A stretch of DNA of 64,000 nt from a virus (taxonomy: Duplodnaviria > Caudoviricetes): positions 35,852 through 99,851 of the IMG/VR virus record IMGVR_UViG_3300020049_010822, one strand, 5' to 3'. Position 1 is the stretch's first letter. Each line of letters begins with the position of its first letter. Both the position numbers and the translations under genes were made by a program. Shown one piece after another: positions 3,087 through 34,904 of this stretch. Below the pieces are notes generated by a model. It searched no databases, was not told the DNA's origin, and was given only the letters and a program-made list of their open reading frames with translations.

Positions 3087-6000
3087 TTATCTGACTGGAA
3101 TTATCCCAAAGATAAATTCTTGATCTTGCTCTTCGTTGTTGAAGGCGTCTTGCATTTGTAACGCTCCAGATCCCCAAGGAGTAGCTCTAAGAACTGTCTT
3201 AGCTCCTGTAGGCCATCCATCTGAGTTCCGTTCTCCAGTAACACCGGCAGCCATTAACTCAAAAAAAGCTTTACCTGTTTTAGCTACTTTCTCTAAAGCT
3301 ACTACTGGTTTTTCAATAGTACCTAAAAGATCATATGGAGAGGCTCCACGAGTTAAGTCATCAATTGTTCTACGAATAGATTTTCCGATGTATGATTTTT
3401 CATCATCGTCGTCTAAGGAAATGTAGAATATACTTAACAACATTGCAAACCATAGTCCAGTATTGATTGCAGCTCCTAATGCTCTTGCTCTATGTCCTTT
3501 TAAAGTGTTGGCTCCAAACTTATCTGTATCTTGTAAATACTTTCTTAATTCTTTTATAGAACGTTTTGAAGCTAGTGTACCTATCGATCCTGCTAGTACT
3601 CTTAGCTGCCCTTCCATGATATCCGAGTGCCATTGATATACAGGCATTCCATCTGGACGTTTACCTATCATTACATTCTTACCTACTGTAATATCTTTGT
3701 AAGGGTCGGCGTAAAGCACTTTGAGATATTGATAAAAGTACTTATGAAATTGAAGTATAAAATCACCTATTACGGTAGATTCTATAGCTGTCTTCTCTTC
3801 TTTACGATAGGAACCGTTAAGCTTCTCATAAGCACGCTTCATAGATTTTATTTCAAGCGGTGTAAGATCTGTAAGTTCTTCTACTATACCATTACCTTTA
3901 TCTAAAACACCCCTTACTCCTAATTTCCAATTACCTTTTTCATCATAAGCATCCCACATAGATACTTCCTTACCATCTTTATCTTGGATTTTAGTACCTT
4001 GCATTATACCAGCAAGTTGCCACATCGCTCCAAAAGTTTCCCCTATGTTATAGAACATAAAGGCGTGTGAGGTAGGAGATAATTGGATAGCTTTAGAAAG
4101 TAATCTATCATTATTAACTTCATAAGGATAGTTATCAGGTAACCAATCGAATTTTTTAGCTATATTCCACAACTTAGACTCATCTTCTCTACCAGTCATC
4201 TTATATTGGATATAATCTTTAAGAGCAACTGAAGCTCCTCTAGCATCTATACCTTCAAAGGTTTCTGGAGGTACACCTATAATACGAGACATTCCACTGT
4301 TAACTAGGTTTCTAGTGGATTGAGTCATGTTAGCTAACGAAATCATGACTGCGTTACGAAGTGGTGCAAATACTTTAAACGACATTACAGAATAAGTAAC
4401 CGAAGATTTAATAGCTCTAACCACCTTATCTTGAGAAACTATGTACGGAGTTCCTGCAGCTATACCAGTAAGCTTAGATCCAATCACCCCCATCTTTCTA
4501 TTCCAACGTTTAGAGGTAACTTTAACCTCTTTATTCTTATCTAGAATTTGAGTGTAAATTTCATCATCTAACCATTGAGTAAGATTAGGATATCTAGGAT
4601 TACCATCTTCATCAAACTCTTCTCTAAGCGCATTAGAAGTACCTACTGCAATGTCGTAGATTGGATCCATATTCTCTTTATATGCCATAGAAGCCATAAA
4701 GCTTTTAAATGAAGCTTCTACATTCCAAGAGTGATTACCTTCTTTTACTGCCATAGATCCTGAATGCTTGAAGTACTTAAGTGGTATAGGAGAATCTGTA
4801 CTAGAGTAAGTATCTTCCAAGAAGGATGTTAAGTTTCTCTTTATGGAATCGCCTAGAACAGTCTTTATTCCTGCAAAGTTGGCTAGGAAAGCTTCTTCTT
4901 CTCGCACTTCAGATATGTCCTTAGGAATACGAGGCATAAAATCTTCAGGAAGTGTTTGAGGTAGATTTAAATCCATATACCTATAAATAGGAAAGTTTTC
5001 ATCTCCGTTTTTGTATCCCACTACTGTATTAGCAAACCTCTCATATTCTTTAGACATAGATACTCGAATGAAATCTCTATATGCTTTTTGAGCAGGAGTC
5101 ATTTCAGATATCACTCCATCTGACTCATAAGTATTAGAAGTGTTTAAGAAGTACCCTGGGTTAGCTATATCTTCAGACTTTCTCCACATGAATGCAAAGT
5201 GTTGCCTTGTAGTCTTATTTAAATATCTCTGTGCTACTTTATGAGCCACCAATGTTACTCCTAAGCCCACAAAACTAAATGTGAATAAACTCGAAGTAAG
5301 CGCAATTAAAGCCGCAAAATCAAGTGTCTTTCTTAAAGCTGGATTCTCTGATATAACTAAATCTTTGTAAAGTTTATCATGCTGTTCGTTGAAGGATAAA
5401 TTTGATTTGACAATTTTATCTTTTGCATCCATAAGTAATTTATGGAGTGTCTGCACTTTAGTGTTAGATATGTCAGAGAAGTTTTTAAAGCCTCCAATAA
5501 AAGGATAGGTAGGAATGTCTCCTAACTTAGCATTAAGATCTGTACCTACAAGCTTCTCAAGTTCTAAGAGTGCATTAGTATACACAGCGGAAAGAGTAGA
5601 AATATTACTATCTCTTTCAATCTGAGCTTTTGTTTTACCCTTATGAAGAGCAGATATCTTTGTCTTTAAATATAGTATTTGATCTGGATATTCAAGATGG
5701 GCTATCCTATCCATTACAGAATCTAAAGAAGCATCTGTTCCTTCATATGTAGTAGCGTCTAACAGCTTCTTATCTAATAAAGTCTTGTAAACATCTGGAA
5801 AGTTTTGCTTGTAGAAATCTCCTATAGTGTATAGATAAGGTTGTAGATCTAGAGTCATCGCAGTTGCTTGACCTTTGTGGTCTAAACGTATCAGTTTTAT
5901 AGACCTGAATCCCATATCTGGATATTGAGATTTTAGGATCAGTGCTCTAAACGCTAGTTCCAAATAACCGCGAGATAATTTAGAATCTTGTATATCGTAC

Positions 6001-7658
6001 TTCTCTCCATACTGCATAAGATAAGGAGTGTTGTTATCAGAAGTGATGCCTCCAGTCTTCCAGTCTAAAAGAGTCATATCTCCATTCGCGTGCTGAACAA
6101 TACCATCCGCAGTAGTAGCAATAGGCTTGCCATTTGTGTCTACAAGTAGATCAGATTTCAAAATAATCTCTGATGCTATTCGATCTTGTTTAGCTTTAGG
6201 AATACCTAGAGTACCATCTACATCTATCTTAAGACCCGCCACCTTGATAATGTCTGAAAGATTCTCTACAAAGTTTTTAAGATTAGGATGGGTTTCTAAA
6301 GTGTAGAAGGACTCCCCGTATTGCTTTGCGTATTGTAGTGCAATCTCTTTAGCTTGTTTTCTAGTAGCTACATCTGTTTCGAGTAGGTATTGCATAAAGG
6401 CGTGCACCATCTTACCAAATACTCTACCCTTACCTAAGATTAATTCTTCAAGCTCTACAACTTCATTAAATGTCTTTGGAACACCTTCAAGTAAAACAGT
6501 TTCAGTAATTTGTTCTGCTTTCTTGTTCTTAACATCTATACCTCTAGAAGCGAAGAAGTCCCTAGCTTTAGCAGTGGCATAAGATTCTTTAAAACGACGT
6601 GCCTTAGTAGAGAAAGCTCCATGCTCCTTATCTCCTACAAAAACAGTAAGACGTGTAGCTACTTCCTTTCCATCTAAATCCTTATAATAATTAGAATCAT
6701 CGTCCGTAACCAGTTTTGGGTTATCGGACCTAATTTTTTCTATATAATCAATAGGCTTCTCTTTCTTTCTAGATATCTTATTCTCTATGTCGTCTATTAG
6801 AATATCTACTTTCTTATAAGCAGAAGTAAGCGTATTTTCTTTAGATAGATCTAATCCTTTCTCCGCTACTTTAAAAAGATCAGCAAGTGTGGTAGCCGAG
6901 TCTATAGTAACGTTAGAAGATATGTTTAATATTCTACGAATAAACTCAAAGAACTGTTGTAGATAAGAACTAAACGTTCTCTTTGTAGATTGAGATTCTA
7001 AGTAATCAGTGACTACCTCTTCTTCATCTTCTCTGCGATCTCCTAGATTCCTAGCTTGTTCTAATATTGATTGGTATAGAACATTATTTCTAATCCGAAG
7101 CGTTCTAACGAAAGGGTGAAAGTATTCGTGGATTGGAGTACTCTCTGTAGCAAAAGCTGTATTGATATAGACTATCTTATTACCCCCATCGTTTACATAT
7201 CTACCTGCCCATTTTTGATTAGGTTCATGTATTACTCTAAAGGGAATGTTAAACTTCTTGGATAAAACATTTAACATCTTATCCATAGAGGTAGGAATAG
7301 AATCGGCATTAATATAATCTGCAGAAGCCTCCGGAAACAATAGCATATTACCTGCTGGAGTTTCTACTAAATCTCCTTTAAGTGTTGCCTCAATACCTGC
7401 AAACCTTAATGCAAATGCCTCTACCATACTTGGGATAGAATTATCTCCTCCCGTTATAGGATTTAGATAAGTAGCATATTTAATCGAATAGTGCTCTGGA
7501 TTTTCTGCTATTGCTAATTTTAATGCTAGCTTGATCTGCGTATTGGTTTGCGCTGTTATAGTATCAGATTTAAAATAGTGTATAGTAGCTAAAGTTTCAT
7601 TTTGATACTGCGCCATCAAGTCCTTTCAGAGTTGACTAGATTTTAGTGGGCATTGCAT
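3087..7658 (-). CDS. giant virion cargo / polyvalent protein (~1523 aa) with zincin-like HExxH and PD-(D/E)xK nuclease domains; TGA=Trp at codon 11
   Basis: Start MQCPLKSSQL[TGA 7626-7628]KDLMAQ is in frame with track ORF 3087..7619; PIHEYFH; GKMVHAF...TADGIV...LLDWKTG nuclease motifs; hydrophobic segment FAALIALTSSLFTFSFVGLGVTLVA. Confidence 0.85.
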
Positions 7659-7661
7659 ATT

Positions 7662-10600
7662 TTAACATTTTATAGTTGTTTCGTATATCTTTAAGAAGTC
7701 TTCTAGTGACATATTATCAGATTGGATAAGATTAAAAACTTCAGGTCCAAATTCTATTAAATTTAAAAATTTGTCTTGAATTTCAGTAACAAAGAAATAC
7801 TTACCATTACCAGCACTAACAAAGTCTCCAGCTTGTATATTTTTATTTCTCATCTCCCCTTTTATTTTCGCAGTGTGGGTATGAGTAGTATTAATAGACG
7901 GAATTATTTCAGCCCCATTATTAAACACCCAAGAGAGCAGTTCTTGTTCCTTAAGAGCAGTCTTTAATGCTCCTATCTTTTCATTCATCTCTTCCTCCCT
8001 TTCTCTAAATGGTTCTAAGAAACCTATCTTATCTCTAAGCGCCTTAGCGATTTTATTTCTAAGGGTAGGATTACTATTTAAAGGATTTAAGATGCTGCCA
8101 TCTACATAATAGTTTAGATTCTTATCAAGCTTCTCAACTGCAGATAATATATGGTTAGTAATCCCAGTTAATTCTTCCATTGTAGCATTTGGAGGCAGTT
8201 CAGCTATGGGTAATTTTATAGCCGTGCTTTCATCTGTACCCTCGTTAGAAAGAAGTCTGGCTCTTTTATTTTTAAATTGTATATCTCTATACTCTTTTAA
8301 ATTACTAACAGTTACCACTGTACCAAGATTTTCGTTTAGAAACTTAGCCATAAAGTTCTTTAAATCTACTGCTTCATCTGTCTTAGTAATTGGAAAAGAA
8401 CCTTTATAAGTTAGAGCGTATACTATCTTATCTGGCAACTTTGAAACTTTATCCACAGCGTAGTATCTTATAGTATTAGCAGAGGCTGAACTTTTAGGAA
8501 AGGCATATATTACTTGTCCTTTTTCAAACTCGTGAGTTCTATAATCAGTAGTTAGTTTACCTTGAATTATATTAGACGTATTTACTATGGGGTACTTTCC
8601 AGATTGAAGCGCCCCTAAATCTAAGGAAGCGTCTAGTTCTGAAGGCTCAAAATGATAAAATCTACTGCCAGAGTTTTCAGTTAATTTTGTATAGTATGAA
8701 AAAGGCGAGCCAGGTGTTTTTATTAACAAATAAATACTATCATCATACCTACGTAAAAACTTAGCACTAGTATCAGAGTAAGGTTTCTCGTACTTTAAAT
8801 CAAAGTATATATCAGTTCCATCTACATTATCAACACCAGCAAAAGATTCTTGAGTTCTGTCAGCTGTCTTTGTGCTTCTTTGTAAGACCGGTTTTAACTT
8901 AGTAGTTTTAGATACTAAAGAAGGATTATTCTTTAAAAACTGAAACATAAATCTATCCTTAAGTATTGCTAAGTTTAGATCTGTTTTAGATTCCCCCTTA
9001 GGTATTACACTATTTAATCTTTGGTCTAATGCTACCCCATATTTAACTACCCAGTGAGCCGGGAATATTAAAGCGAAGCCTGTCTTTTCGTAATACATGG
9101 CTTCTCCCATTAAGGCATACTTAAACAAATCTTGAGCTCAATCGGCACGAGTATATCCAGAAGATATCTCTGTAGAATCCTGCGTTAATTTCAAAAACGC
9201 ATCTCTAATCTCTTCTAATACTTCCTCATCATTAACTTTATCGCCTATAATCTGAAGTTTAGATAATCCATTATTCTCTATACTTGGTTCCAAAGCTCTA
9301 ACAAAAGAGTTAGTTTCTAGATCAGGAGAATCTATTAAAGTAATAGCTTTATTTACAAAGATTTGAGCCCAAGCTTCTTTGCCTCTTAGCATCTGAGAGG
9401 CCGTAGTATACTCTATCGTGTCTGGTATGTTAGTAGTGAAAGTCTTATTTTCTAATTCAAAAGTCAGATTAGAAGCTAAAAATTTAATAAGTTCCTTACT
9501 AACTATATCCACTTTCTCTAGCTCATCTGTTCCAGTATAAATATTAGCTTCTTTTAGAAGAGCCTTTATGAAGTTCTGAACTACAGGATTATACACAGCA
9601 AAACTGTTCTCAAGTATAGATTTAAGTTGTAATAAAGATTTGTAAGTAGCAAATACGTGTGGTATTCTTAGTATGGCTACATTACTAAACACACTGTTTG
9701 CTCGCTCAACAGTTCGATTAACTCCTCCTCTAAGAACCCTGTTTACAAAAGAGGCTCTAATAGAAGCAGAGAGAGTTCCAAAAAGCTTGCTGTTCTTTCC
9801 GCTTGTGGCTGTACTCACTTCTGCTTCAGCCATCTTATCAGCTTCTTCTGCGTTCTCTTCAAATTTAAGTTTATAATCTTCACTTTGAGTTTTGTAATTA
9901 TTCAGCAGTTCCGCCTTTACAGCCGCTTTAATATTAGACGATGTGTTTACTTCATCCCTAAATTGGTTATGTTTCTCAATCTTGTCGATTAAAGAATCCA
10001 CTTTCCATTTCTTATTCGGAAGACTTCTTAAAGCTCCAAATATTTGCGCGTATTCAAACAACTCTTCTCCCACAGGAATAATCTTATGTATAGAAGCCAT
10101 TACTACAGCATTGGATAACAAAGTAAGATCATCACTAGCTTTACCTACATAAATCTTATCTAAAATTTCTGTTTTAATATCTAGATTTTCTAGTACATCC
10201 ATCAACTTTCCTTCCTTTATATCGGATAGTATACTTGCCACACTGTTCTTGCCTGTATATTCTTTTAAAACTTCCGTTAAAGCTTCATCAGATAGAGCAG
10301 ATATAGACTTTAGTAAATCGTCTATATAATTTTCTTTTATAATTTTGGCGCTCCATCTAGAATTCTCATTTGCCTCCATTAGCAGCGGAGTCTTAAATAT
10401 TTTAGAGACTGTGTTAAGAGGTACCCCCATGCCTAACATAGTTAAATAGGTGTTAGCATTAACTCCAGTGATACCTAGAACAGATAACTTTTGTTCTTTT
10501 ACGTTATCTATGGCAAGGTTAATAACAGTATCAATAGTCTCGAAGTTGTTTATCTCTTTTCCATTAGGACTTAACTCCTTAATGGTAGTCCTTCTCATAG

Positions 10601-11183
10601 TATTAGCTTTAACGCCATCTATAGAAAGGGAGTTCTTTGGTGTCAATTCCACCACTTCTCTTGCGTGTACTTTATATCTATTAGACTTTTCTAGTAGGGC
10701 TTCAGCAGAGTAAACACCCTCTTCTTTTAGAAGTGTTTTAAAATCATCTAATTTGGTTTCAATGATGTCTCCTGTTTTAGTATCCAATACCGCAGATATG
10801 GTAGCTCCATCTAAAACATATCCAAATGTTTTACCAAAGTTAGCGGATATGCCTGTAAGATCAATACCTGCATAAGTATTATATCTAATCTCTTCTTGTA
10901 CTGAATAGTCAGTAAGTTGTCCTGAAGGATTCAATTGCTCTTCTACTTCTTCAGCACTTAATAATCCTTGAGTGATTATACCTTTTTTTTCACGTTCCAA
11001 TCTAGCCCACATCTCGGATAGGGATTCTGGAGATTGTTCTGTATTATATTTAGAAACTATATCCAAGGCAAGTTTGGTGGGAGAATCTCCTAAGAGACTC
11101 CCCACACCGTTTACCAATACATAGTCTTTAAATTCTTCTTGAGTGTATTCTACACCCTTAAAAATTATTTTACAATTTAACAT
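7662..11183 (-). CDS. virion RNA polymerase, C-terminal subunit (~1173 aa); TGA=Trp at 9138-9140
   Basis: Track ORFs 9138..11183 and 7662..9128 join in frame (GAT TGA GCT CAA GAT TTG TTT); carries GIDLTGISAN and LAIDNVKE blocks typical of the region after the catalytic loop in crAss-type RNAPs. Confidence 0.75.
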
Positions 11184-14100
11184 ACTAATTGTATTAAACC
11201 TGCTTTTTGTAAATCGTTTATAAATTCTTCATTAGATAACAACTTACCTAATTCTTCTAGTGTTTCACTCCTTAATCCTTTTACAGCCTTGAAGCTAATA
11301 GGAGTTAAAAGATCCTGTCTGTTTTTAAAATCTAACATATTCTTTGAGAAAAGATCTATGATATGATTCTTAGCTGAAGATTCAGCAGCATCTGCAAGAG
11401 TGTTTAACTGTTCATTTAAAGCTTCTATTTGCTTTCTAATTTCCGTTTGTTTAGGTATAGAAAGTTTTAAAGCCGGATCGGAAACACTTAACTGATTAGT
11501 GAGAGTCTCTATCTTTTTAGAGACCTGATTCATTACCTTCTCTAAATACTGATGTAGATATAAACCATCAATAACTACCGCTCCATTCTCCCCAAAGCCA
11601 GGCATATTAGAACTAGTTAATACTAATCCATTATCATACTCATGGCTATCTAAATACGAAGATACTAAATCATTCAAGTCCATGTCTTTTCCTGCATGTT
11701 TTTCTTTACGTATTACAAAGAGTGAATCGACATCATACTTTATTGTTCATGTGGTTTCGTTAATCTCACACCGTTAATTACAGCTGCATTTTGCAATGCA
11801 GAACAGACTATATCTTCATCCTTGTCGGATGCTTCCCATTTCGAACCACTTGGCCCTACCGGACGTTTCCGCCCGTCTATATTATATGAAATCTTATACA
11901 TCATTTCTGGTATTTGTGATACATAAGGTTTAACTAAATCAATAAATTTAATAGCATTTGAAGTTCCGCAACAAAGTGAAAAGGTGCCTTTCCCTTCAGA
12001 AATAGCATAGAATTTAATATCCCATACTTCATTGAAATAATCTATAATAATTTGCAATTGTTCTTTTGGTAAACAAGTGGCAATTCTTACATAAATTCCA
12101 AAGTTGCCTCTGTGGTTTAAACAACCATCGTCCATAAACCAGATAGCCAGACCTTGTGCGTCTAATCTATTTAGCATTTTTCTATTTGCTATTACTTTTC
12201 GCGTACTCTTATAAAAGACCCTTCTTAATACTTTTATAAATGGATTTATATTTAATCGGGTATAATAATAGGTTTCTCCTATTTTATAACCTTTTGTACT
12301 AATATATGAATTTACTCCAGAATTTCTAATTCCGTTGTTATTCAGTAGATCAACTTTTCATTGTAAATATTCTTTTTGTTTTTCACAATGTGTCATTCTA
12401 TATCCATTCGTTGAACTGATAGAGCCGTCTCCTAAGAGCATAGCAATCATTAAATTTCTTGATTCTTTATTAAATTTTGTTTTCATATTTTTATCGTTAC
12501 ATTATAGAACAATATTCTAGATTAGTCGTTGAACCGTCCTCTAAAATTTAGAGGCTTGGCTGCTGATTACCCTCGTGGGGCTTCCCAGCAATTAAAGAAG
12601 TTTTAATCCGACAATGATATTTATCGGAACCGTGATAGTAAACCACAAGAGAAGGCGCAATAACTATGTTACCTTTAGATCCTTTAGGTACTGGGTAGAA
12701 ACCTACTACTTTTAATGGTAATAAAGAGTGATAGTTAGTAGAAGGTATACGGAAACCTACTAGTCCATTTTCAGAACCAAAGGTAAAGGCATCGCCTTCT
12801 TTCATAAACTCTCTATAAGTCTCTGGAAGTATAATCTCGCAGTAGCCATCTTTATCTCTAAACTCTAGCTTACGTTTCGTCCATCTTCCAGTACTTTCAT
12901 TATAAAGCTCTTGCAATCCCAAGTCTGCTTGTAACACTAACTTGGAACCTTGGAATTTAAATCCAGTAGTAGCCTTAGTCATGAAAGACGCAATTGTGCT
13001 CACAACCCGTTCTGAAATCAAAGGTAAGTTTAACGACGCTTTTTGTTTAGTTTCTGGATCTACTGCCTGCAACATCTCTAACACGTCTCTACCTCCTGGT
13101 AATCCTTCAAGAGAGCTGATAACCCTTTTAGTTAACATGGCTTTAGAAGCTGAAGAAGCTCCTCCTTTTCTTGTTAACCGTAAGGCTCTAGATACTCTGC
13201 GAAGTCCGTTTGTTATTAGGAACGAGTTTAGCTTATGTAGATCAAAAGACTCCGCGAAGTTAGCACCATTGGTATTCATAAACGCAGTTCCTTGTGAAGG
13301 ATTAGCTACATCTTTATCTGTATCAGCAGCAGGGTTTAATTGAAATCTAAGATTGCCGTTATTTATATTTAAGAATGTAGAATCGTTTACGGAGTCTAAA
13401 AGTAGATTGCCATCTTTTTGATTTAACTTGGCTAGTTTAGAAGGAAGACCAACTTTAACTGCCGACTTAAACACCATTTGATCCGCCTTAGCTTTTCTCA
13501 TAGTATCCCGGTAAGTACCTAAGTGTGGATATCTTTCAACAAGTTCGTCTGTTAGAACCTTTACAGAATATTTTACAGCCGTAGGTATACCATTCTCTAT
13601 AGAGAAATATACCGGCTTCATTACTATATCCGTAAGAGATTCTATACCGTAAGTTCTGGCTACCTTTTCATAAAATTCTGGTAACATAAAACCTTCAGCA
13701 TCTGAAGCGTCATAAGTATCACGATACGAATCAGCAAGTACTCCTTCCATATCCTGAGGTATATTTAACTGCAGGTCATCTACAACAAGTATTCTAGAAG
13801 TAAGAGGGATGCCGTAGACAGAATCTGTAAGAAGTGTATCCCCAGTAGCAGTGACAATTTGTATCCGTTTAGTTTGGTCCTCTTTGTTCTTGTAGAATGT
13901 TTCATCACCATATAACAATTGCGAAGCTGAATATTGATTTATAATAGAATTATAATAGAACATCTCTATTGCTGCCCCTATTATTTTATTACGTTTATCA
14001 ATTGCCTCTTGTTTTACTTCATCAGTAGCATCTTTAGCTGCAAGAGGAGTTACCACACCTAAATTAAAGTACTTGGCAGTTCTTTTTAAATCTGCTTCTG

Positions 14101-17100
14101 CTATTCTGATTTTAGCTGGTTTAGTTAAAGAGTGCTGTTGGAAATCTTTCGCTATTTCAGCTGCTTGTTTCTTCACATGCTCTCTCACTGCTTTCAAAGC
14201 TTGAGCTTCAGTCATAGAATCTACACTACCAGAAAGTCCCGCAAGTTTCCATTGTTTCCAATTAGGAACTCCATTTTTATCTTTAGCTAAATAAACTTTA
14301 GTGTTAGCTAAATCTGGATTATCTTTTGGGTCGGGTCTATTTTTCTGGGCTTTAATGATGCTAGCTAGAGCTTTTGAAATCTCTTGATCTTTTTCTGTCT
14401 GTCTTAAAGCTGTAACCTCTACTGCCTGTATTGTGGTACGATTAGAAGGTATGGGCAAGAACTGAAAATAGGAAGAACCAAAACCAACCTTAGTGAAGAA
14501 TCCAAATACTATATTACGTTTTCTAAAGTCTTTTAAGTTCTCTTTAGTTAGGTATTTAGCGTCTGAATCGTTACCCTTAGTTTTTAAACCATCGTGATCT
14601 ATAAATCCAGTAATGTTATTAATACCATTAAAGAATATGTTATCTTTTAAGAATCTATCATTAGAAGTTAATTTCTTTCTGTCTTTATTAAACTCGAAAG
14701 TAGAAAACTTTTTATGAGGTAGATTCTTACTAGTCTTATCTAAGGCCCTCATTATAGAGGTTAATAACTGTGACTGATAGGAACCATCTATCCAACCATA
14801 AGCTTTTTTACCATCCGCTCTAGTGTAAGAGTGAGTTTCAGATAATTGATAGTGGTTATTAAGAACATCTACTAGATTACGTAATAACTTAGTTTCTGAT
14901 TTTAATAGATTACTACCTCTTCTCTCATCATTGTATTCCTCTATACTCTGATTCTCTTTAACCCCGGCTTTATACTTTGCTTGCATTTCCTCTAAAGCGG
15001 GATGAAAGCCTTCAAACATAATGTCTAACTGAGCACTAGTAACTTCAGTAATTTTTCTCTTAATCCCTACTACATTAATAAAGTCTTTTAATGCTTCTCG
15101 TTTAGCTTCTACATCACTAGTAGACGCCTCACGTATTTTACGTAAAAGAGCGTCTGTAAATAGTGTATTACCTCCCAAGCTGTTTGTATACTTATCAAAC
15201 TTATTAGCTACGTAGCTTTCATGGATTTGTTTACCCCCACCTGTTTTAACTCGTATATACCTAGATTTGTACTCACCATAGCTGTACTCATCTATACCCA
15301 CATGAGGTAAATTCTCTCTTAAAGAAGATACCGCTGCAAGTAACGATCTGACAAAATCTAAATCTTCAAATAAGAAGTACGCTTTAGAGACACTAGTATA
15401 ATCTGTTTTAGTAACAGCAGCTATACTTTTTATTAAATCATCCATACTTCCCCCTTCTATTTGGTGAAGAGTTCTGTATTTAGTTGGGTTCAACTCAACG
15501 TCTCTAGTCGTTGCTTCTCCTACAGGAGAACCATCTGTAGATACTAAAGCATATAAACTTTTGTTTGAAGCGTCCTTTCTAAACGCAATGTCTTTACGTA
15601 ATGCGGGGTCATTAAATTGATTTTGTATTCTTCTTACAGTGGAGAGCATGAATCTTCCAGTTGCTGTCCTAATATTAGGAGATAACTTGGAAGACTTGGC
15701 TGAGAAAGAACTGAATGCTTGTTCCAGAGCGTCTAATGCTGTCTGCATAGAATCTACTGGAATAGAAGCCACTCTAGGGAGTATAATAGAGAAAGCCTCT
15801 CCTAATGCAGCATAATCTTCTTCTCCATCTTTTAAATACTTAATAGATATAAGACGTTGCTTAACATTACCAGTAAGTTTAATTGAAGGATCAGAGAGCT
15901 CTGTATCGAAGGTCTCAGCTGAAAGGGCTGACATCTCACTGTCCAGAGCTGCTAATTCTTTATCTAATTTTTCTCCAGCTTCAATTCTAGTATTTAATTC
16001 CTCTTGCTGTTCTAATAAAGCATCCAACTTTTGTTGTTGCCGTTCGTCGTATAGACGTCTAAGTGTATCTCTAGTTTGTGCTTGTCCAAAGAAAGTATCA
16101 ACAAAAGACTTGGATAACTTAACATTATCCAGAACCTTACTTAAAGCTCTCTTACGAAAAGCTAGTTGTTCTCCAGTATCTTCTGGAAAGAATTTCTCTG
16201 GAGTTCTACGCATCTCTGCAAGACGTTCAAAAGTAGCGGTTATAACTTCTGAAAAAGACATTACTTTACCATCTCGTCTAGAAAATTCGATATCAGTAAA
16301 GTTAGAGATGATAGCTGCCTTAACAAACTTGTATTCGGCTAAGTTATCAAAGTTAGCTGCTATGTTTATCTGAGCTCTTTCTACTTGTCCGTTCTGGATT
16401 TTTCTATTATAAACTCCACCTTGAATGGAACTAAAGAATTTTTCTAAAGAAGATAAGTTATTAAATGTAAACCCAAGTAGACGTAACAGCTTTTGCCAAA
16501 ACACTTGAAACACATTAGGCTTCTTTGTTATAGAGTAGGTCTCAAAATCAACAGCCAGTTTTTCTTCTAAAGCTACTTCATCTAAATTACCCCATTTCTC
16601 TTTAGCTAGAGATAATACTTGAACTTGTTCAGCAGGAGTTAAATATTCCCAGAAGATTTTGTGGAACATCTCGTGCCTAACTGTTCTAGATCCTATCTTA
16701 CCGTTAGTATTTAGTGCATAGTTTATGACCCCATTTTTATACAGACCCCAAAGTGTTTCTCCTCGGTTATTTACAAGCTCGCCGAATTTAAACATTCTAA
16801 ACACTTCAGAGCCACTTTTCTTTTTAAAGAAAGATTTAAAGAGTTGGAAAGTACTAGGAGGATTAATTCTAGTCATTAACTCTTCTACTTCTTGAGGTGA
16901 TAGATCTTCTCCAAGATCTTGGTCTACACCTTGGAATATTTGAGCTCTTTCAAATTCACCTGCCTCTACTACTTTCGCAGCAGCATCATAATAGTCTTCT
17001 TCCTCGGTAAGCTTTTGTAATTCTGCTTTGAAAGCTACGTTATCAGGATGTTCTAACAGAGCATTGAATTCTTCTTCGTTATCCGCAGATTCTAATAATC

Positions 17101-20100
17101 GTTTAGCGAAATCAAAAAGTGCTCCTTTAGGTGCTGGTATTGCTGGATCATCGGTATTCTTTAACAATTTCCTTACTTTAGAGGATAGGCTAACAATTTC
17201 AGCTAGTGTAGGAAATATATCCTCCATGATGTTTACTTCATGTACAGGATTTTGTGTCTTATAAGAATTATTTATGTCATTATAAGCTTGAACTACTTGG
17301 TTAAAACGTACCATTAATTCATCATCCGACATGCCTAAATCTTCCGCAATAAATTGTACTGTGTCTAAAAAGTCTTTTTCACTTCTATTTTTACCCGAAT
17401 AATAATCTAACCGAGCTAGATCGGAAACCATCATTAAATACTTAGGGGCACTAACCCCAAAGATTTTAACAAATACAGCTCCTCTGATGTAATCTCTAGA
17501 AGCCAAGATCCCAGCGCTTCTGCCTACACCCTCCACTTTAAGTGAGGTTACAAGCTCAGCTTCAAGTTGTTCACGAAGAGTTAAAGAACTTTCTCCTACA
17601 TCTTTCAGAGCTTGGTAAATATTCTTATTATTAGTAGTAACTTGAGCCTTCTTAGTATTTTGTCTATACGACATTACTGCACCTTCAAAAGTAGCTTCAT
17701 TCATGAATAACATAAATTCAGCAACTACTTCTAACGGATACTTAGTTCTTAGTGTCTTAGGTAAGACTTTAGTGTCTCTAACATCTCTAATTAGTTGTTG
17801 GAGTGGGGAAATCTTTTGAACTTCTACCTCTTGCGGAACATCAGGAGCTAGCATATCGGGAGAAGTTCCTACTACGATCTTAGTAGGTACTGCCTTTACG
17901 AAATTAGTTTGTAAGATATCTTTAACTCTTACTCCGCTAGTTGTAGATTCTGCTGAAGCATCAAACTCAGCTCCAAGTGGAGTTCTAATTCCAAATCCGT
18001 CAGAAAGATTGGAAAGTCTGCCAGAAGAGTCTAATCCATCTACAAGTAATCCTTGAAGATCTTTTGTAGTTATAGGATTTAAATGTACAATACTTTCTTC
18101 TCCTGCCTTGATAATCTCTTTTACAAACGTAGCTCTAGATGTGTTGCCCAAACCTCTTTTCTCTAAACTATCATTATAAACTTTAAGTCTATTGATAAGT
18201 TTATCTTTCATCTCCGCGTTATAAGCTAAGCCTTTTTTACGAACAAACTTAATAGGACCTAAAAGACTTACACCAGAAGAGTGTGTAACTGTTCTTTTCT
18301 CTGTAGATTTATAGTCAGATTTTCTATAATCTCTAAGTATTACATTAGTCCCGTCCGGAAGAGTGGTTATAAAGTTTTGCTTACCTATAGCATCAATAGC
18401 TTTTTGGGCAGCTCCTTTGTATTGTCTAACTTCTCCCTCTCCTACATCTCCGTGTACTAGAATATCCATTTCGTAAGCTAACTGCATCAATTCCTTAGGA
18501 ATTTTATCACTGCTTACTGGAGGAAAAACACCAATTAAATTCTCACTGTTAAACAACAGCACATCTTCTACCTTACCTCCTTGCGAAGCTCTGTAAGCTT
18601 TTGCTAAAGATATAACAAGAGAATGAAAAGGGTAATAAGATTCTCTACCTATAACAACAGGTTTACCATTTCTAAGCTCAGAAAGTTTTCCGGGTAATCC
18701 TGAAGTAGCTAATAAAGTCTCAAATCTCTTTAGCTTATCTAGAAAAGCGTATAATTGAGATAACTGAAAGTCCGGTCTGTCCGGGGTGTTTTTATTAAGA
18801 ATGGTAGGCACTAATCTAATAAACTGATTTTTCATAGGTTGTCCACTTCTTGTCTTCATATTATATATGATAAGATATGGAGGCCCTAATCTAGGTCTTT
18901 GTTTATCTGACTTAGCACTTGCAAACCACTGGCGTACTTGCTTTTTAGTTTTAAAGGATACAATCTTAGTGTGGTTGTCAAAGTTATTTATAATATCCGC
19001 ATAGTTTTCAATGTAATCCCCAGGATTTTCCCCGTAAAGAGTTTTGAAATATGTGGTTAGGATAGATAGCTTTTCTAACTTACCTTCTCCATCTACATCC
19101 GCTGTAAAATCATCAGTAGGTTGCGGAGAATAGATATATTTAATATCTGCTGTAGTTGGCTGTATAAATAATTTATACGAAGATTCAATTGTTTCATTAG
19201 GATTTATTAAACCTGAAAGTCCCGTTTCAGAATTTTGAAAGGTGTACCCTTTTAAAGTAGCTAAAGAAGGGATCTTTAAATTGGTTTCAAACTGCCCAAC
19301 TTCATCTTCACTAAGTATAGCAATCTTTCTAAAAGCAAACGGAGCACCATCCTCTAAGATGGGTTGTAATATTAAATATCTAGTAGCTGCAGATCCATCT
19401 CTTTTTGGAGTTACATCTTTTACAACTATAACTTCATCACCAGATTGAAGCGCTGGTAAATCTTCATCTAAATTAGAAGAGGCTAATACATTAGAATCTG
19501 GATTTCAAAGACTATGAGTGCCTTCTGGAACTAATATTTCTCCGCCTTCATCTACATCTTGTTCATTACCTTCATCAGCAGTTTCCTGCTCATCTTCTGT
19601 ATTGGTCTCTTCTTCCTCAAGCTCTTCTTCTACTGCTTCTATTTCCTCTTCTTCAGTAACAACATCCTCAGTAATCTTAGATAGGATATCTATTTGAGTA
19701 GTTAAAGTTTCTATAGCAGTAGTATTCTTGGTTTCCTTAGCAGCCATTACTTTCTCTAAAGTTTGAGGGATACCTCTGTCCTCTTTAAAGGTAGAATCTG
19801 GAATATTAGCTACATGTACAAAGGTAGTTGCTCGTGAAATAGCAGTATACATCCAGGCATTAAATACCTTGGACACACCTAAAGCCCCACCATCTGTCAC
19901 TTCTACATCTATGTATACTTCATCTCTAGTGATACCTTGAGCTTCTGGAACAGTTAGAATTTCGGCATGAGGGAATTGAGCTTGATACTTTTGTTTCTTT
20001 TCTTGTGATCCAACTAATATAGCTCGACTTCTAGAAGGATTAGATAATTCGCTACTTCTATAAACATTAGCTATGTTGTTTTCTTTCTCGGTAAAGCTAC

Positions 20101-23100
20101 CTATTATATTTGTTGTAGATATAATAGGATTAAGACTAGCCGCAGATTGAATATCTTCTACTTTATTAATTGATTTAAAAGCATTCTGAAGATCTACTAT
20201 CTCAGCTACATCTGAACGGTACGTTACAGAAAGAGGAGATATAGTTTGTATGTTCTCTATGAATGGAAGAGTAGCGTGGTCATTAGACATCCGTACTCCT
20301 TTCCTATACTCTAGTTTTGTAGCTTCAGATCCTTCCCAATAAGCCCTTTCAGATATTGCAGGTTCAGCACTAAAGTTATTATCTATAGGGGCTTCAGATA
20401 CATTCCCTGGTGTGATCTGATTTGGGTCATAAAGAAATATAAACTTAAGCCCAGCATCTGGATTCTCTCTGTTGTACTTGGCGAATGCTGCTGCAAATTT
20501 ATTGATAGGCTCATTTAAGAGAGCACCAACTTCATCTACAACAATAAGTTTTACTCCTTTAGCAAGACCGTTTGTGTTTAGGATATTTGTAAGTTCTTCT
20601 ACAGTGAAAGGACCTACTGGTGAGTCCAGAGACTCCTTGATATTCTTAGCTGCTAAAGGTTGCGGAGCTGCTGTTACAATCTCTTCTCCGGACAGTTTTA
20701 ATACATGCTTTAACAGTTTTGATACTACTAAAGATTTACCCGCTCCTGCAGGAGCTTTTAATGCAGCTCCATTTTGATATAATTCATTCTGTACTTTATT
20801 TGGAGCCATCGTAAAGAGAGCTAACTCTCTAACAACCCGAATTTGGGAAGTAGATGGTGTAGGTGCAGTAGGATTCTTTTTTAGATAATCTCTAACCGAA
20901 TTAAGGAACGACACATTATTGAAACCTGCAGCTTTAGTTTGTGCAATTTGTTCTAACGCTATCAGTTGTGTCTGAAGTAATAATAACTGTTGTAGTTGTT
21001 CTGCAGTTGTTACTCCTACGAAAGAATCTAAATTCCTTGTAAACCTTACGACATCATAATCTTTTACAAAGTTCTCAAGTGCTAATAAATTCTTTGAGTT
21101 AGCATCCGCAGTAGCAGATTCCTTTTTTAATATTAACTGAAACAATCCCCCAAAACCTCTGGTAGGATGTGTTAATATTATGTTAATATCTTCTGGAGTT
21201 AATTTATAATTAGCAGGACTGGTAGTTAAATCGAATACAGAAAGAGCGGCTAATTGTTCTTTAGCAGAAGTCATTACACGAATCTTTATCGCGTTATAGT
21301 CTTCCTCTGTTCCTTGTGCTATCAAATCTGCTGTAGCCATAGATCCTAACACTGGATCTAGTTCTATGAGCTTATTCAACTCTGCATTCTCTGGAGCTAA
21401 TGAATTAACACCAGCAGCATAGTGAAGATCTTCCAGCTTATTTTTTAGATCTTTGTTAGCTCTATTTTCCTTTGCTTTAACTAATATTTGTTTTAACGTT
21501 TGATGTAGTTTTTTAGCTTCTGTAAGAGCTGGTTTATAAGCTGCATCTTTCTTAGCTAAAGGTATTAACCCTTTATTAATTAAAATCTCTAATTTAGCTA
21601 TCTCAGTTTCAACGCCAATAACATTATCATACTCTGGAGAAATATTTTCCCCATCCCATTGTGAAGCGTTTAGAATCCTATTAGGTGCATTCAATAAACC
21701 TTCTACAGCTCTAACTTTAAATACCTTATCATTAGTATTTATTTCAGGGAAACCTTCTAGATCTTTTAGCTTCTGTAGCACGTTTACAGTATCAGTATCA
21801 AGATTACCTAAGGCATCTTTTATTGCTTTCAATCTTTCCCATTCGGCATAAGCAGCTTCTTGGTCAGCATCAAAAGCTTCATAGTACTCTAATTCTGATT
21901 CACTCCAACCTTCGGATTCAAACTGTGCAAGCAAAGCTCTATAAGGAGTATTAATTCCATCTAGATAAGATATTATAATATCTCTCAGCTTAGCTACTTC
22001 ATCTGGATAGAGTGTGTATTCGTTATCTAAAATTCTATTAGTTAATGTTCTAAGAGAGTCTGCAGATTCTGGAGTGTATCCAGTTTTGGTTAGATACTTA
22101 ATAAACAGATTTATAGCATCAGCAAAGAAAGCGGTTTTAGCTACTTTTACTTTATCTTGATGTTGTAGCAACTGCCCATTCTTGTCCGCATAAGTTTCTA
22201 GATCTGCTTCAGTAAATTTATCATTAAGAAATATTTCTCTAGACTTTTCTCTAGAGGTTTTACCGTAAGATAAAATACCTTTTGATACAGCTTCTTTATA
22301 CGCATTAAAACCTTTTTTAGGTTCCAGCATCTTAGTGTAAAGCCCGCCTAGTTCTTCTCTAGCCTGTACTAAATCTTTACGTTTTGTAGAGAGCTCCGCT
22401 ACTAATGTTTCTTCTACAGAATTTTCCTCTGTAGTCTTATAAGGAAATAGTGAATCTAGTTGATCCGTTTCTTGGAAAGCCGTTTGTATTGTACGAAGAC
22501 GCTCATAATTAGAACTATTAGTAATAACATTATTTATCTCTTTATCTACATCTTCTATTAAAGTATCTAAGTTAACTATTCTACCACCAACTTCAGCTGC
22601 AGTGTCTCTGAATCTTCTTAGAGCTTCATCTGTCTTTGGAGCAATAATAGCATTATTAGTAGATAGATAATTTGCTTCTAATCTTTCTATATGTTTTTTC
22701 CAACGTTCTACAGTAGTTTCTATTTCTTCTGGATTCTCAATGCCCGCAGCTTGTAACTTCTCTGGAGAGAGTTTCTTGTAAGAATCTAGCTTTTGAAGGA
22801 GAAGATCAGTAGAGCCATGCTTGAAAGCCTTTTGAGCTAAGTTGTTTAGTTTAGATAATTGAAATAAAGAAATCTTAAGATTATCCGATCTATCTTTAGA
22901 AGCTTCAGATTCAATGAAATTGTCAAACTCAGAATGCAGCTTAGCATCAGCTGCAAATTCTGTCGCTTTGGACTTATCGATTAGAGGAGCCCCATTCTCA
23001 TCTACTGGAAGTTCTCCGGGAACAGTATACTCCCCTTTCTCATTAGCATTATAAGTTTCTTTAATTCTTTGATAGGTTTCAGGATTAATTTCTTGTACAA

Positions 23101-24544
23101 TCTCTTCTGACTCATCAAAATATTTAGTAACTCCATCCTCTGTTTTTATAACTAACTTACCTTTCTTATCTTTAGTCTTAGACATTATACTAGAAGACAT
23201 AAAGTCAGTGTAGGACTTTTGAAGTTCGTTAGTAGCTAATTCCCTAGCTTCACGAATAGTTCTAGCCTCTCTTATGGCTCCGTGTCCTGCCGCAGCAGTA
23301 AGTGCCGTTTGTCCCGCACCTATTAAAGATCCTAAAGCGGTAGACTCTAAACGAGCATCATCTGAAAAGTCTAATCCGTGTAACAAGAAATCTTGCGCTA
23401 AATCTTTACCGCTTTCTAAGAAAGATCTGTGTAGATTAGAAGCATCGTTTACTTTTTGTATAGAGTATTGTAGATCCTCTTCAAAACCTTCTGATAAACC
23501 TTGTTCTAAGAACCTTTTAGTAAACATTCCTGCGGCATGCCCTTCATCAAATAAAAATTTATCGAATCCAGAAGCGTAGGTAGGTTTCTCCGCCATGTTC
23601 TCAATACCATTCATTATCTTCAAACCTTGTTTGTTAGTTCTAGTAGCTACAGACGAGGGAGCGTAGATGGGTTTAACAAGCTTGGTGAAGAATCCATTAG
23701 TTGCAGCACCAGTCAACATATTTAACCAAAACACATTAGTTAAAGAGTTCTCTGCAGCCTTTTCTATTTCTTGGTCAGACATGTTATTCTTGCCCTCCAT
23801 CCTATCCCTATGGAGTTTATCTGCAACAGTCTTCTTAGAGTCCATTGCCTCCATAGCAGCTTCATTAGTAGTCAAGAATACGTTAAGAGCAACCTCGTCA
23901 ATGTTACCTGCTATCTTAGCTAGATTAGGAGCAGCAAGCTCACTAAATACAGCTGTAAAATCTTTACCTTTAGCTAGCTGGTTTACTAATCTAGTACCCA
24001 TTTGAGCTTTACCTAGGAGACCTGCTAAGCCGAATGACTGTGCTAAGAATCCTATTGTCTCTACATTGGCTGTGGCGAGTTGCCCCGGAGCAGTGAACAG
24101 TTTTTGTGCAAAGCCCATATCTTGATACTTGGCTTCTTGAAAGTGTGGAAACACCTCATCTCCATAAGCATTAATGGATTCCGCCATGTTCATGAATGGA
24201 TTGTCATCGAAACCATCAGAGAAATTACCTCCAGTTAAAGCGGAGAAGGTTCCTTTACCTAATCCTGTGATTCCACCTACAATCGCTGGAACTCCGGATA
24301 CAGTCTTTACACCCACATCTCCAGCAAAGTTTCCGAACGCATCTAACCAGGATTGATTCTGATAACGAACATCGGTCTGATCTGCAAAGTCTTGAAGACC
24401 TTTATCATAGTATCCGGCTCCTGTTAGATTTCTTGCTACCCAACTACCTTTGGTACTGTCATAGTATCCTCCTCTTTCTGAGGTAACAGGATTTGTGTAT
24501 TGCCTATCTTTTAGGCCGCTGGATATTGTACTTAAATCTGGCAT
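11177..24544 (-). CDS. giant virion protein (~4160 aa): N-terminal cargo region + SF1 helicase + zincin-like motif + RNA polymerase N-terminal/catalytic part; join(24544..12623,11737..11177); TGA=Trp at 19505-19507
   Basis: Frame stays open for 215 codons from the TGA at 19505 to the track start at 18859; helicase motifs APAGAGKS, VVDEVG, YDPNQ, TVPEAQGIT, YTAISRA; RHEMFH; FRIPS...GSD|YDVD catalytic motif after splicing. Confidence 0.8.
11738..12622 (-). mobile_element. group I intron (885 nt) in the RNAP catalytic motif
   Basis: Exon ends ...TCCGAT and pairs with intron GTCGGA (P1, U-G at splice site); core words AATTGCTGGGAA, AATCAGCAGCCAAG, GTTCAACGACTA, AAGATATAGTCT; terminal G at 11738; P10 ATATCAT/ATGATGT; splicing restores GSDYDVDSLF. 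Confidence 0.92.
11740..12486 (-). CDS. intron-encoded LAGLIDADG homing endonuclease (248 aa), TGA=Trp at 12358-12360
   Basis: MIAMLLGDGSI...QKEYLQ[TGA]KV...GLAIWFMDDG: two LAGLIDADG-type motifs joined only by TGA readthrough. Confidence 0.88.
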
Positions 24545-29400: not shown

Positions 29401-29510
29401 AATTCATACTGAGCAGCATTAACAAAATCTCCCGAAAGCTTAGTAGCGTAATCCATTAACATGGAGATTTCACCACCGGAAAAATAATTCTTTTTTCTTT
29501 GTTTTTTCAT
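26469..29510 (-). CDS. cargo protein with peptidoglycan-binding domain and repeated xxGG motifs
   Basis: LQQFLRNQGYYKGNTDGIYGPQTEAAVKAYQK and DGIVGDQT (PG_binding_1 signature); NYFSGG, NYQQGG, RDSGG, GYASGG, FAYGG. Confidence 0.7.
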   Translation of the reverse strand: MKKQRKKNYFSGGEISMLMDYATKLSGDFVNAAQYEFNPNGPAYKADWSKAYTSGLVGMIPELIKASKDKKGRSAYVASATPGNYQQGGPIQPTPVLVSRGSRPSHYLPNMGVAPTPQINVMDQLMIPGLMPTPVQLPGYVKPLMINEAVGGSSKSKSRDRFRERDSGGPLVPTTAQSEYTMYSKDKAKGSDSSGRKTLRRGMREEAPGEITQLQQFLRNQGYYKGNTDGIYGPQTEAAVKAYQKNFNKEAEYAMSYAKDSKKSELIGKGGKKIKEDGIVGDQTRTALMYRERSKPTNDKKVESPTPEFPMGERLVKYQTSDYTPNNFPDSPMNYAGGLEMLGLAMMVPEATGIGTAMATRGAATVGAEVTSNMLSQGVSKLNLPEQVNFLGNTVKNTVGRTGGRSFAPKTPSSYGTRIGYASGGQMPDEMLSNSAFQVKGAPNVTDGNSYPELNANLDHNEVVKKNFVYSTKLKAPNGKPFSFEAAKIENSTGKAQKKLMTNPQDESAKNTIKMNESAMQSLATLQETIATAKGLRKPTRDFAYGGYADDPTDPPYTFIGETNNNKLPIANISPTQWLDITNPFNPATGKRRRPIGPDTFIGSRLGAGQAAIDLGRDGLFYDPYSKKFTVRNSKGEYVGVQPNAGQFEVNGSNIRDLTNNRSYNVDEHLRFMSSPKIESSGAPGPRLETPSNVLTNTPEDPSLGAFPRPVVAPPIAPAPVISPVAINKRRGPGAAKASKTNPTAPPPAPGEIANDISTYEQMLASANAGDLPLYRGEFDSGVGTGPVTQPVTSTAPARALPNIASAATFGQNSTNSVTSPLAGLGSQFTIGDGLQALTVASKFGQLAGGAEVEKPYYDTTNITKENFDPSNPLYQANRNFQQGLNTLQNSSINQNRSFLNNLYVGKLNQDSDILTKYNQMNQSARTQQEARQSDQRRYNIGQTVGTNDINARNRAAYKEAVDVASNSLGNFGKGLNEKKIAYDSLAVLQKMYPDVYARIMAEQQKTKSTNAG

Positions 29511-34483: not shown

Positions 34484-34904
34484 AACTGAAGTATTTTTTT
34501 ATGTAGTTTTGGTGTTTGATTAATTGGGCTAGTTTGCGAGCGGGATCTCTAGCTACTCTAAATCTGTAGACTGTTCCTGTTATAGGACTGTTTATAGCTT
34601 GTCTAAATCGAACTTGAGCTACTAATTCATCTGCATGTAGATTAGCCATATTTCTTTTCTCCCCCGTTAATTTAAAATGTTGATAGTCAAATTGCTTATA
34701 ACTTGGAAAAGTAAACACTCCTAAATATCCAAAAGCTGTTCCTAATTTATAAACCTTTCCGGTTTCTATCATAGAGTTAAGAAGTAAGTTATTGAACATT
34801 TTTAAGATTATGCGGAAAGAATCTTTGCTAATCTTATCTTTTTGAGGAAACGTTTCATATAGATTAACGAAGTTCCACAGATACTTGGGAGTCTTTCGCG
34901 TCAT
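34464..34904 (-). CDS. IHF/HU-like protein of the crAss tail module
   Basis: Basic; SMIETGKVYKLGTAFGYLGV resembles the HU/IHF fold; syntenic position between ring genes. Confidence 0.55.
   Translation of the reverse strand: MTRKTPKYLWNFVNLYETFPQKDKISKDSFRIILKMFNNLLLNSMIETGKVYKLGTAFGYLGVFTFPSYKQFDYQHFKLTGEKRNMANLHADELVAQVRFRQAINSPITGTVYRFRVARDPARKLAQLIKHQNYIKKYFSYEAYFD

Follow-up and report, generated by a model that had tools for sequence, protein, structure and literature searches.

The most abundant phages in the human gut are the Crassvirales, and infection by these phages begins with a giant polymerase that is packed in the capsid and pushed through a narrow tail. Cargo proteins of two members, phi14:2 and crAss001, whose homologues are considered here, are known as packaged and ejected virion proteins (10.1101/2020.03.07.982082; PMC10172136). 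In crAss001, gp47, gp50, and gp49 were detected in virions and placed in the cargo zone of the capsid, the cargo must partly unfold for ejection (constrictions of less than 50 Å), and several disulfides connect virion subunits in the tail and at the portal vertex (Bayfield et al. 2023, PMC10172136). In phi14:2, gp077 is the polymerase of PDB entry 6VR4 (named “gp66” there; Drobysheva et al.), and gp076 is a zincin protein that may activate the polymerase, as suggested for this phage (10.1101/2020.03.07.982082). Here, we analyzed the cargo genes in a stretch of 64,000 nucleotides (nt), hereafter the window, which covers positions 35,852-99,851 of the IMG/VR record IMGVR_UViG_3300020049_010822 (Caudoviricetes). 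The genes of interest are all on the minus strand, and they encode a giant virion RNA polymerase (vRNAP) that is broken into two overlapping open reading frames (ORFs), followed by a zincin-bearing protein, with single cysteines (Cys) facing each other at both gene junctions.

The cargo block would be made as three polypeptides, namely a subunit 1 of 4160 amino acids (aa), a subunit 2 of 1173 aa, and a zincin-bearing protein 3 of 1523 aa (Table 1). With TGA read as tryptophan (Trp; genetic code 4) and subunit 1 spliced, these proteins contain only five Cys in 6,856 residues, four of which are located 0-3 residues from the junction termini: C3902 (internal) and C4160 (last residue) of subunit 1, C4 and C1173 (last residue) of subunit 2, and C3 of protein 3. 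The outer chain ends (MPDLST.. at the start of subunit 1 and ..IIPVR at the end of protein 3) are without Cys, and the whole arrangement fits what is expected of a linear chain, i.e., one protein with a C-terminal Cys only, one with both, one with an N-terminal Cys only, and interiors purged of this residue. An earlier note on this DNA had claimed that both junctions pair a C-terminal Cys with an N-terminal M-x(1-2)-C, and the heads MLNC and MQC bear this out. We refer to the pattern as the head-to-tail terminal-Cys rule, which was defined in the present analysis and not taken from the literature; it calls for a Cys within ~9 residues of each facing chain end and none at the outer ends, as found in the window. 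We consider it rather probable that the facing pairs (..LVC/MLNC.. at junction 1 and ..IKC/MQC.. at junction 2) form an inter-chain link, likely a disulfide, that ties the cargo into one thread.

The earlier note had staked its proposal on conservation of the terminal Cys in relatives, which was found both in the alignments described here and in the named Crassvirales discussed below. C4 and C1173, the only Cys of subunit 2, are invariant in alignments with 13-16 relatives, in which the head of subunit 2 follows M-x(1-4)-C (e.g., MLNC, MRRC, MSC, MAC, MKAC, MNKC, and MLNQNC) and its tail ends in C or in C plus 1-2 residues. The tail of the upstream protein reads ..[AS]G[LI]Ixx.C plus 0-3 residues in the loci of 11 distinct relatives. 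For protein 3, in which Cys3 is the sole Cys, a second search showed that all 14 homologues with an intact start have an M[IQV]C[PS] head and exactly one Cys, at position 3; more generally, the head pattern of protein 3 among relatives is M-x(0-1)-C-P-[NIL]-[KR]-.., with an invariant Trp11.

The presence of these Cys also tracked the state of each junction among relatives. Of the ten giants fused at junction 1 (4885-5618 aa), eight have only one Cys, in the last or penultimate position (P0018, with Cys 5618 of 5618, and P0031, P0033, P0035, P0047, P0048, P0042, and P0044), and no relative fused at this junction has a Cys at the junction-1 position. While both pairs are present in the window, P0018 and similar giants have the junction-2 pair and not the junction-1 pair (one C-terminal Cys). 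The reverse was observed in P0071, which starts with MKGC and has subunit 2 fused to protein 3, so that the junction-1 pair is present and the junction-2 pair absent (one Cys, Cys4). P0068, P0080, and P0083, also fused at junction 2, lack its pair and have zero Cys, and the fully fused P0055 (6403 aa) has neither pair and zero Cys. All four combinations of the two Cys pairs occur in nature. In a FastTree phylogeny of 30 subunit-2 regions, the state of junction 1 changed at least three times on well-supported branches, with the fused P0018 nested inside a split clade; the SPLIT label on this tree used the N-terminal Cys itself, and a label based on alignment coordinates gave the same partition once N-truncated gene calls were removed.

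Together, the alignments and the tree indicate that the Cys pairs belong to polypeptide junctions and appear and vanish with them, and that the junction-1 pair is derived, within the polymerase, and the junction-2 pair ancestral, at the boundary between polymerase and zincin protein. The earlier note had also proposed that a module at the junctions allows new break points in the giant gene. This idea fits, because the pairs are junction-specific (the first sits at a derived split and is absent from fused relatives) and the same pattern is found in phi14:2, crAss001, DAC15, IAS virus, cr116_1, and Suoliviridae. A weak motif (Y-[ST]-x-E-E-F) that occurs close to the head and again close to the tail of subunit 2 hints, though faintly, that the two modules might be homologous copies, i.e., “portable” in the literal sense.

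Among described phages, phi14:2 gp078 (1797 aa) has one Cys, its last residue (..TIC), gp077 (2180 aa) has only C3 and C2179, and gp076 only C3. In crAss001, gp47 has a single Cys at 2339 of 2341, gp50 has C5, C2404 of 2412, and one internal Cys, and gp49 has a single C5. DAC15, IAS virus, and cr116_1 have the same Cys pattern, and in these three and crAss001 (all Steigviridae), the gene of the first protein is on the opposite strand and its product still ends in Cys. The Suoliviridae phages cr4_1, cr118_1, cr50_1, and cr109_1 show ..C plus 1-3 residues followed by a head of M-I-C-P, M-Q-C, or M-Y-K-C-P. For 12 such proteins of four phages, a rough chance estimate gave a summed log10 p of about -32. 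In crAss002 (MN917146; L022/L024), gp32 ends in ..FVCS and the annotated start of gp33 (MVLDYS..) lies 32 codons upstream of an internal M-S-C (Met33); judging from this arrangement, the true start of gp33 is probably the internal M-S-C, facing ..FVCS, and the annotated start is probably wrong. The cargo Cys go unmentioned in the phi14:2 preprint (10.1101/2020.03.07.982082) and in the crAss001 atlas (PMC10172136, with 0 uses of “cysteine”), and full-text searches of the literature returned no description of a terminal-Cys rule for cargo proteins.

At junction 1, the ORF 11177..11683 ends with ..LQKAGLIQLVC-TAA and the ORF 9138..11183 starts with an ATG at 11183 (MLNCKIIFKG), so the overlapping ORFs read in the earlier note are indeed present, on the minus strand; they share 7 nt (ATGTTAA), with the downstream gene shifted to the -1 frame. 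We searched for relatives of subunit 2 using phmmer with the 1173-aa protein against 1.84 billion representatives, which yielded 98 matches. About 18 proteins with lengths of 1100-1340 aa have the same starting point as subunit 2 (25-44% identity), relatives align with it from residue 1-3 to the end, the same three-gene order was found at 12 loci (Logan assemblies and IMG/VR), and subunit 1 of relatives, with 4102-4282 aa, is close in length to that of the window. These alignments indicate that the split at junction 1 is real and old. It lies in a variable linker that is also present in fused forms, and here the earlier note was mistaken: it had described the blocks NRQDLLTPISF and GIDLTGISAN as adjacent in unsplit polymerases, and they are 74-142 residues apart in 10 fused relatives vs. 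147 in the window. Two ways of rejoining the halves were considered and rejected. One was a split intein, as Pfam gave no Hint or intein match, only 0-4 residues separate each Cys from its chain end, and fused relatives have no Cys at the site; the other was a programmed -1 frameshift, as no X XXY YYZ heptamer is found in the last 15 codons and relatives have their own ATG with varied spacing, including a stop and start without overlap.

The AlphaFold2 (AF2) model of subunit 2 (predicted local distance difference test 81.7, predicted template modeling score 0.72) had only one significant fold match in the PDB, i.e., chain A of 6VR4 (6VR4_A), the phi14:2 vRNAP (Foldseek E value 8.8e-8), and subunit 2 was therefore assigned to the C-terminal part of the polymerase. 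The VIA comparison of subunit 2 with 6VR4_A gave Z 17.3 and a root-mean-square deviation of 4.7 Å over 532 aligned residues (next match, Z 6.0). The aligned span covers model residues 45-884 and residues 950-2122 of the 6VR4 chain, and the last ~290 residues (885-1173, beta-rich domains) are outside the match. In the model, Cys4 is in a coil ahead of a beta-hairpin and Cys1173 is three residues beyond the last helix, both on exposed terminal coil. By analogy with phi14:2 and crAss001, the window vRNAP would be packaged in the virion and ejected. The match to 6VR4 was found by fold search alone: a profile of subunit 2 had no match among PDB sequences, phmmer of phi14:2 proteins had none among window or crAss002 proteins, and blastn and tblastn of the junction region had none in 50,697 phage records. 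PHROGs gave no match for any of the four large proteins, and Pfam none for subunit 2 or protein 3.

Junction 2 depends on the genetic code. Subunit 2 ends with ..YETTIKC-TAA (7662-7667) and is followed by ATG CAA TGC at 7658, but the head of protein 3 (MQCPLKSSQL-W-KDL) is joined to its gene only if TGA 7626-7628 is translated as Trp; given this, the tail and the M-x-C head claimed in the earlier note are both in place. This TGA, ten codons past the start, falls at the invariant Trp11, which is encoded by TGG in L001, L002, L009, and L016 and by TGA in three independent recoded genomes (window 7626-7628, L005 at ~13679, and L010 at ~5981). Because the window has TGA in this conserved Trp column, with TGG in relatives, and also a suppressor tRNA with the cognate anticodon UCA (not called by ARAGORN), as in code-4-like recoding, we read TGA as Trp. 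The tRNA would be the reader of the recoded TGA and is required for both the MQC head and an unbroken subunit 2. Since Crassvirales hallmarks were also found in the window by Pfam matches (CrAss_Ring_1, 1e-34; CrAss_Ring_2, 7e-23; Crass_capsid, 1e-36), its sequence identifies it as a Crassvirales phage translating TGA as Trp. Most of the ORFs called under code 11 merge under code 4, with one odd codon per merger. The TGA at 9138-9140 in subunit 2, which makes this protein appear broken under code 11, aligns with a Leu/Phe/Ile/Met column, not a Trp column, in 16 relatives, none of which has a gene break at this position; further in-frame TGAs are at 19505 in exon 1 of subunit 1 and at 12358 in the endonuclease ORF described below. 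As TGA is at Trp11, code-11 gene callers drop the Cys-bearing head of protein 3 (P0099, P0100, P0110, and P0112). Apparent Cys-less N-termini in P0012, P0021, P0007, P0099, P0100, and P0110 were rejected as gene calls shortened by in-frame TGA in recoded relatives rather than true splits. Protein 3 has a gluzincin-like motif, HEYFH at residues 177-181 with EE at 213-214. In two IMG/VR loci (L007 14262-15790 and L014 13797-14509), its gene is interrupted after about residue 98 by 0.7-1.5 kilobases unlike the window protein, which may be another intron or insertion.

Table 1. Coordinates of the cargo genes and associated features in the window
Feature	Position	Strand	Size	Basis and remarks
Subunit 1, exon 1	12623..24544	(-)	3974 aa	ORFs under codes 11 and 4, alignment
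Group I intron in catalytic loop	11738..12622	(-)	885 nt	Rfam RF00028, P1, alignment
LAGLIDADG homing endonuclease ORF in intron	11740..12486	(-)	248 aa	Code 4; Pfam LAGLIDADG_2 6e-23, residues 12-180
Subunit 1, exon 2	11177..11737	(-)	186 aa + TAA	Starts YDVDSLF, ends ..AGLIQLVC
Subunit 2, C-terminal vRNAP part	7662..11183	(-)	1173 aa	TGA 9138-9140 read as sense; Cys4 11172-11174, Cys1173 7665-7667
Protein 3	3087..7658	(-)	1523 aa	TGA 7626-7628 read as Trp11; head M-Q-C-P; Cys3 7650-7652
tRNA, anticodon UCA	60532..60604	(-)		Rfam tRNA 42.9 bits; anticodon loop CT-TCA-AA read in sequence
Code-11 ORFs of cargo region	19505..24544; 12548..18859; 11740..12177; 11177..11683; 9138..11183; 7662..9128; 3087..7619	(-)
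Code-4 ORFs (TGA = Trp)	12548..24544; 7662..11183; 3087..7658; 11740..12486	(-)	; 1173 aa; 1523 aa; 248 aa

Upstream of the split, subunit 1 is interrupted by a group I intron in its catalytic loop, into which an ORF of 2103 aa extends beyond the loop. Exon 1 contains a helicase-like region (AAA_30 matches on relatives) and HExxH at residue 2624, and its last residue is the first Asp of the catalytic DYDVD, as the end ..YYHGSD aligns with YYHGSDYDVD of intron-less relatives. The intron matches RF00028 with an E value of 8.5e-9 and 42 bits, under the gathering score of 50, its core being interrupted by the endonuclease ORF; a second intron piece matches P7'/P9 of the same model. The P1 pairing UCCGAU/GUCGGA, with a U.G pair at 12623, puts the 5' splice site after GAT, and the 3' splice site, with G 11738 directly preceding exon 2 (start 11737), was fixed by alignment to intron-less relatives (YYHGSDYDVDTLF). 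A 3' splice site after 11672, suggested by an apparent P10 pairing, was rejected, since the resulting motif has no third Asp and intron-less relatives give 11738. Joining the exons gives YYHGSD/YDVDSLF, which restores DYDVD at residue 3974 where intron-less relatives have YYHGSD[YNF]D[VIL]D[TS]LF; the DFDxD-type catalytic loop of Crassvirales vRNAPs is thus present, as is DFDID at 1361 in phi14:2. With the intron located, the distance of ~186 aa from the catalytic loop to the polymerase break, as given in the earlier note, proves exact (exon 2, 11737..11180, 186 aa), and the 3974 and 186 aa of the two exons sum to the 4160 aa of subunit 1, with TGT at 11180-11182 as the codon of Cys4160. Other lineages have comparable features at this site: a group I intron with a LAGLIDADG endonuclease directly after the first Asp of the DxDxD loop is present at L026 11680-12327 as it is at window 11738-12622 (-), the distant homologues P0029, P0063, and P0081 start at xDxDSLF, as if an intron occupied the same site, and in cr116_1 an endonuclease with the same N-terminus (MKTKFNKESRNL) sits between two pieces of the polymerase gene.

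Mechanistically, we propose that the two Cys facing each other at each junction would form an inter-chain link, most likely a disulfide formed inside the particle, which would connect the three proteins end to end as a linear thread of ~6,900 residues and stand in for the peptide bond of the fused relatives. With the link placed at the chain ends, a partly unfolded chain would still be able to traverse the tail as a single thread; stoichiometry and order would be fixed in this way, and the parts could be separated afterwards in the reducing cytoplasm of the host. An end-to-end disulfide is favored because crAss001 virions hold inter-subunit disulfides and their cargo must partly unfold. We infer that the pairing partner is the facing Cys, that the chemistry is a disulfide, and that the role is in packaging and ejection. 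For the fuller statement, i.e., that terminal Cys-Cys disulfides tie the giant cargo into one covalent thread and replace the peptide bond, such that the genes break and fuse at will and the host cytoplasm undoes the bond, we see the chances as evenly balanced.

Several points weigh against this proposal. The bond itself is proposed from the sequence pattern, and one Cys per terminus would equally fit a metal bridge or other thiol chemistry. Synthesis of the cargo proteins takes place in a reducing cytoplasm, and the hosts include many gut anaerobes, which poses a redox problem for disulfide formation; a partial check of 8 Cys-rich window ORFs found no sulfhydryl oxidase. Independent events are few, because the state of junction 1 changed only ~3-4 times on the tree, on which the SPLIT label drew on the N-terminal Cys and the coordinate label agrees only without N-truncated gene calls. 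There are also departures from the pattern: the C-terminal Cys of crAss001 gp50 is 9 residues from the end, some proteins have extra internal Cys (DAC15 gp076 and IAS gp056), and P0056 and P0058 end near the polymerase C-terminus without any Cys and either break the rule or are ORFs truncated at a recoded stop.

Other explanations of the Cys pairs were weighed against the same data. The facing Cys could share a bound metal ion (e.g., Zn or Cu(I)) with ligands nearby, forming a specific, non-covalent head-to-tail dock. This would explain the same tracking of junctions and remove the redox problem, as thiolate-metal sites can form in a reducing cytoplasm, and HExxH zinc sites are found in two of the three cargo proteins; we nevertheless consider it unlikely, as each terminus has one Cys and the alignments of heads and tails show no conserved His, Cys, or Asp partner next to it, two-coordinate sites are uncommon and specialized, and crAss001 virions are known to use disulfides. 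To a similar degree, we doubt that the tail ..AGLIxx.C simply pairs with the beta-hairpin of the head, with the Cys as unbonded packing or capping residues. The motifs around the Cys are conserved (tail, [AS]G[LI]I..; head, C-x-[IV]-x-[IVF]..G..Y[ST]xEEF; protein 3 head, C-P-N-K-N-S..W-K-x-L-V) and a structured hairpin directly follows Cys4 in the AF2 model, as such docking would have it, but Ser, Ala, or Val would pack equally and the Cys is invariant, its variable spacing (M-x(0-4)-C; C plus 0-8 residues) better suits a flexible reactive group, and the purge of Cys elsewhere is sensible if stray thiols are harmful. It is less likely still that each terminal Cys acts alone, as a cysteine-switch ligand of the zincin, a modification site, or a tether to the portal or capsid interior. 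Cys3 of protein 3 is ~170 residues ahead of its own HEYFH motif, and activation of the polymerase by the zincin protein was suggested for phi14:2 (10.1101/2020.03.07.982082); against this, the outer ends never have a Cys and Cys occur only as facing pairs, the fully fused P0055 keeps the zincin region without any Cys, and subunit 2 has both Cys without a zincin motif.

Two further explanations concern the nucleotides rather than the proteins, and we give them very little weight. If the Cys were a by-product of the gene boundary (an ATG overlapping a TGY codon, or a motif for coupling or re-initiation), the overlap of the upstream TGY with the downstream ATG (A-TG-Y) in 7 of the 11 junction-1 geometries and the occurrence of ATGTTAAA at both window junctions would follow. 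The remaining four geometries, however, keep both Cys without overlap of the Cys codon (an in-frame stop then start in L016, stop-T-ATG in L031, and an ATGA overlap at the stop in L030 and L032), no overlap ever involves the junction-2 Cys, a C-terminal Cys is retained in giants fused at junction 1, and the first proteins of the four Steigviridae with that gene on the other strand also end in Cys; this origin is thus very improbable. Most remote of all is that the split at 11177-11183 is unreal, with an indel from assembly, a second intron, or programmed -1 frameshifting in what would be a one-chain polymerase: the downstream frame is open for 14 codons ahead of its ATG and the frames differ by -1, but the overlap has no X XXY YYZ slippery site and no Rfam intron signal, and ~18 relatives, each assembled independently, share the boundary, with starts of their own and varied spacing (e.g., the in-frame stop of L016 and the non-overlapping L031). 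Overall, a disulfide between the facing Cys is the reading we prefer.

Compared with earlier work, the window adds a break of derived origin within the polymerase, where a Cys pair was newly acquired, repeated splitting and fusion tracked by that pair, with the full 2 x 2 set of junction states, and an N-terminal Cys head (MQC) visible only under TGA recoding. If true, the terminal-Cys link would be a previously undescribed means by which phages keep the order and stoichiometry of injected proteins. Structural papers leave open the loading ratio and exit order of several proteins of 150-450 kilodaltons, for which a tether would be a simple physical answer; it would also explain why the cargo is nearly Cys-free and why its genes are freely fused, split, and interrupted between lineages. 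For annotation, the Cys rule marks the true starts of cargo genes.

Three other regions of the window, all on the minus strand, deserve mention. At 33764-35553, the tail ring proteins R1 and R2 are Cys-rich (4 and 7 Cys), opposite to the cargo proteins, in keeping with the crAss001 tail, which was described as stapled by disulfides. A Cys-free protein of 1013 aa with a PG_binding_1 domain (3e-13), encoded upstream of the cargo block (26469-29510), may be an ejected cell-wall-binding protein. At 49523-50840, the ORF 49523..50230 corresponds to just the C-terminal half of the crassvirus major capsid protein (positions 295-495 of the 496 in the Pfam profile), and directly upstream is a 207-aa ORF with 10 Cys (CxC, CxxC, CCxCC); the capsid gene may be interrupted by a mobile element.

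Among known systems, the cargo block of phi14:2 is similar to that of the window in having three consecutive virion proteins, with the two-barrel RNA polymerase in the middle and the zincin protein last, and an identical Cys pattern. The window differs in that a single fused protein of 4160 aa combines the first protein with the N-terminal two thirds of the polymerase, the polymerase break is at a new site, 186 aa past the catalytic loop, with a new Cys pair, and an intron in the catalytic loop and TGA recoding are present, with sequence similarity under phmmer detection. PhicrAss001 differs from the window in that gp47 is on the opposite strand from gp50 and gp49 and its polymerase is unsplit after the catalytic loop. 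A giant polymerase is also packaged in the capsid of N4 (Schitoviridae), from which it is ejected and transcribes early genes (PMC13434306). Unlike the crassvirus cargo, the N4 polymerase is a single chain of ~3500 aa from a different (T7-like) polymerase family. To our knowledge, terminal-Cys chaining has not been described for it. Split inteins resemble the window in having separate genes, products that are rejoined, and a Cys at the start of the downstream piece; however, the window has 0-3 residues past the upstream Cys and 1-4 before the downstream Cys, vs. ~100 and ~35 residues in split inteins, in which the N-part starts with Cys and the C-part ends in HN, with Cys, Ser, or Thr next. 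Finally, in AB toxins, two polypeptides stay joined by one disulfide while they are translocated, and its reduction in the cytoplasm of the target cell leads to their release. This is a functional analogy only, with no homology, as the toxin chains are cleaved from one precursor and their bond is not end to end, whereas the window cargo chains are separately translated, their Cys are at the very termini, and the link between them is proposed.

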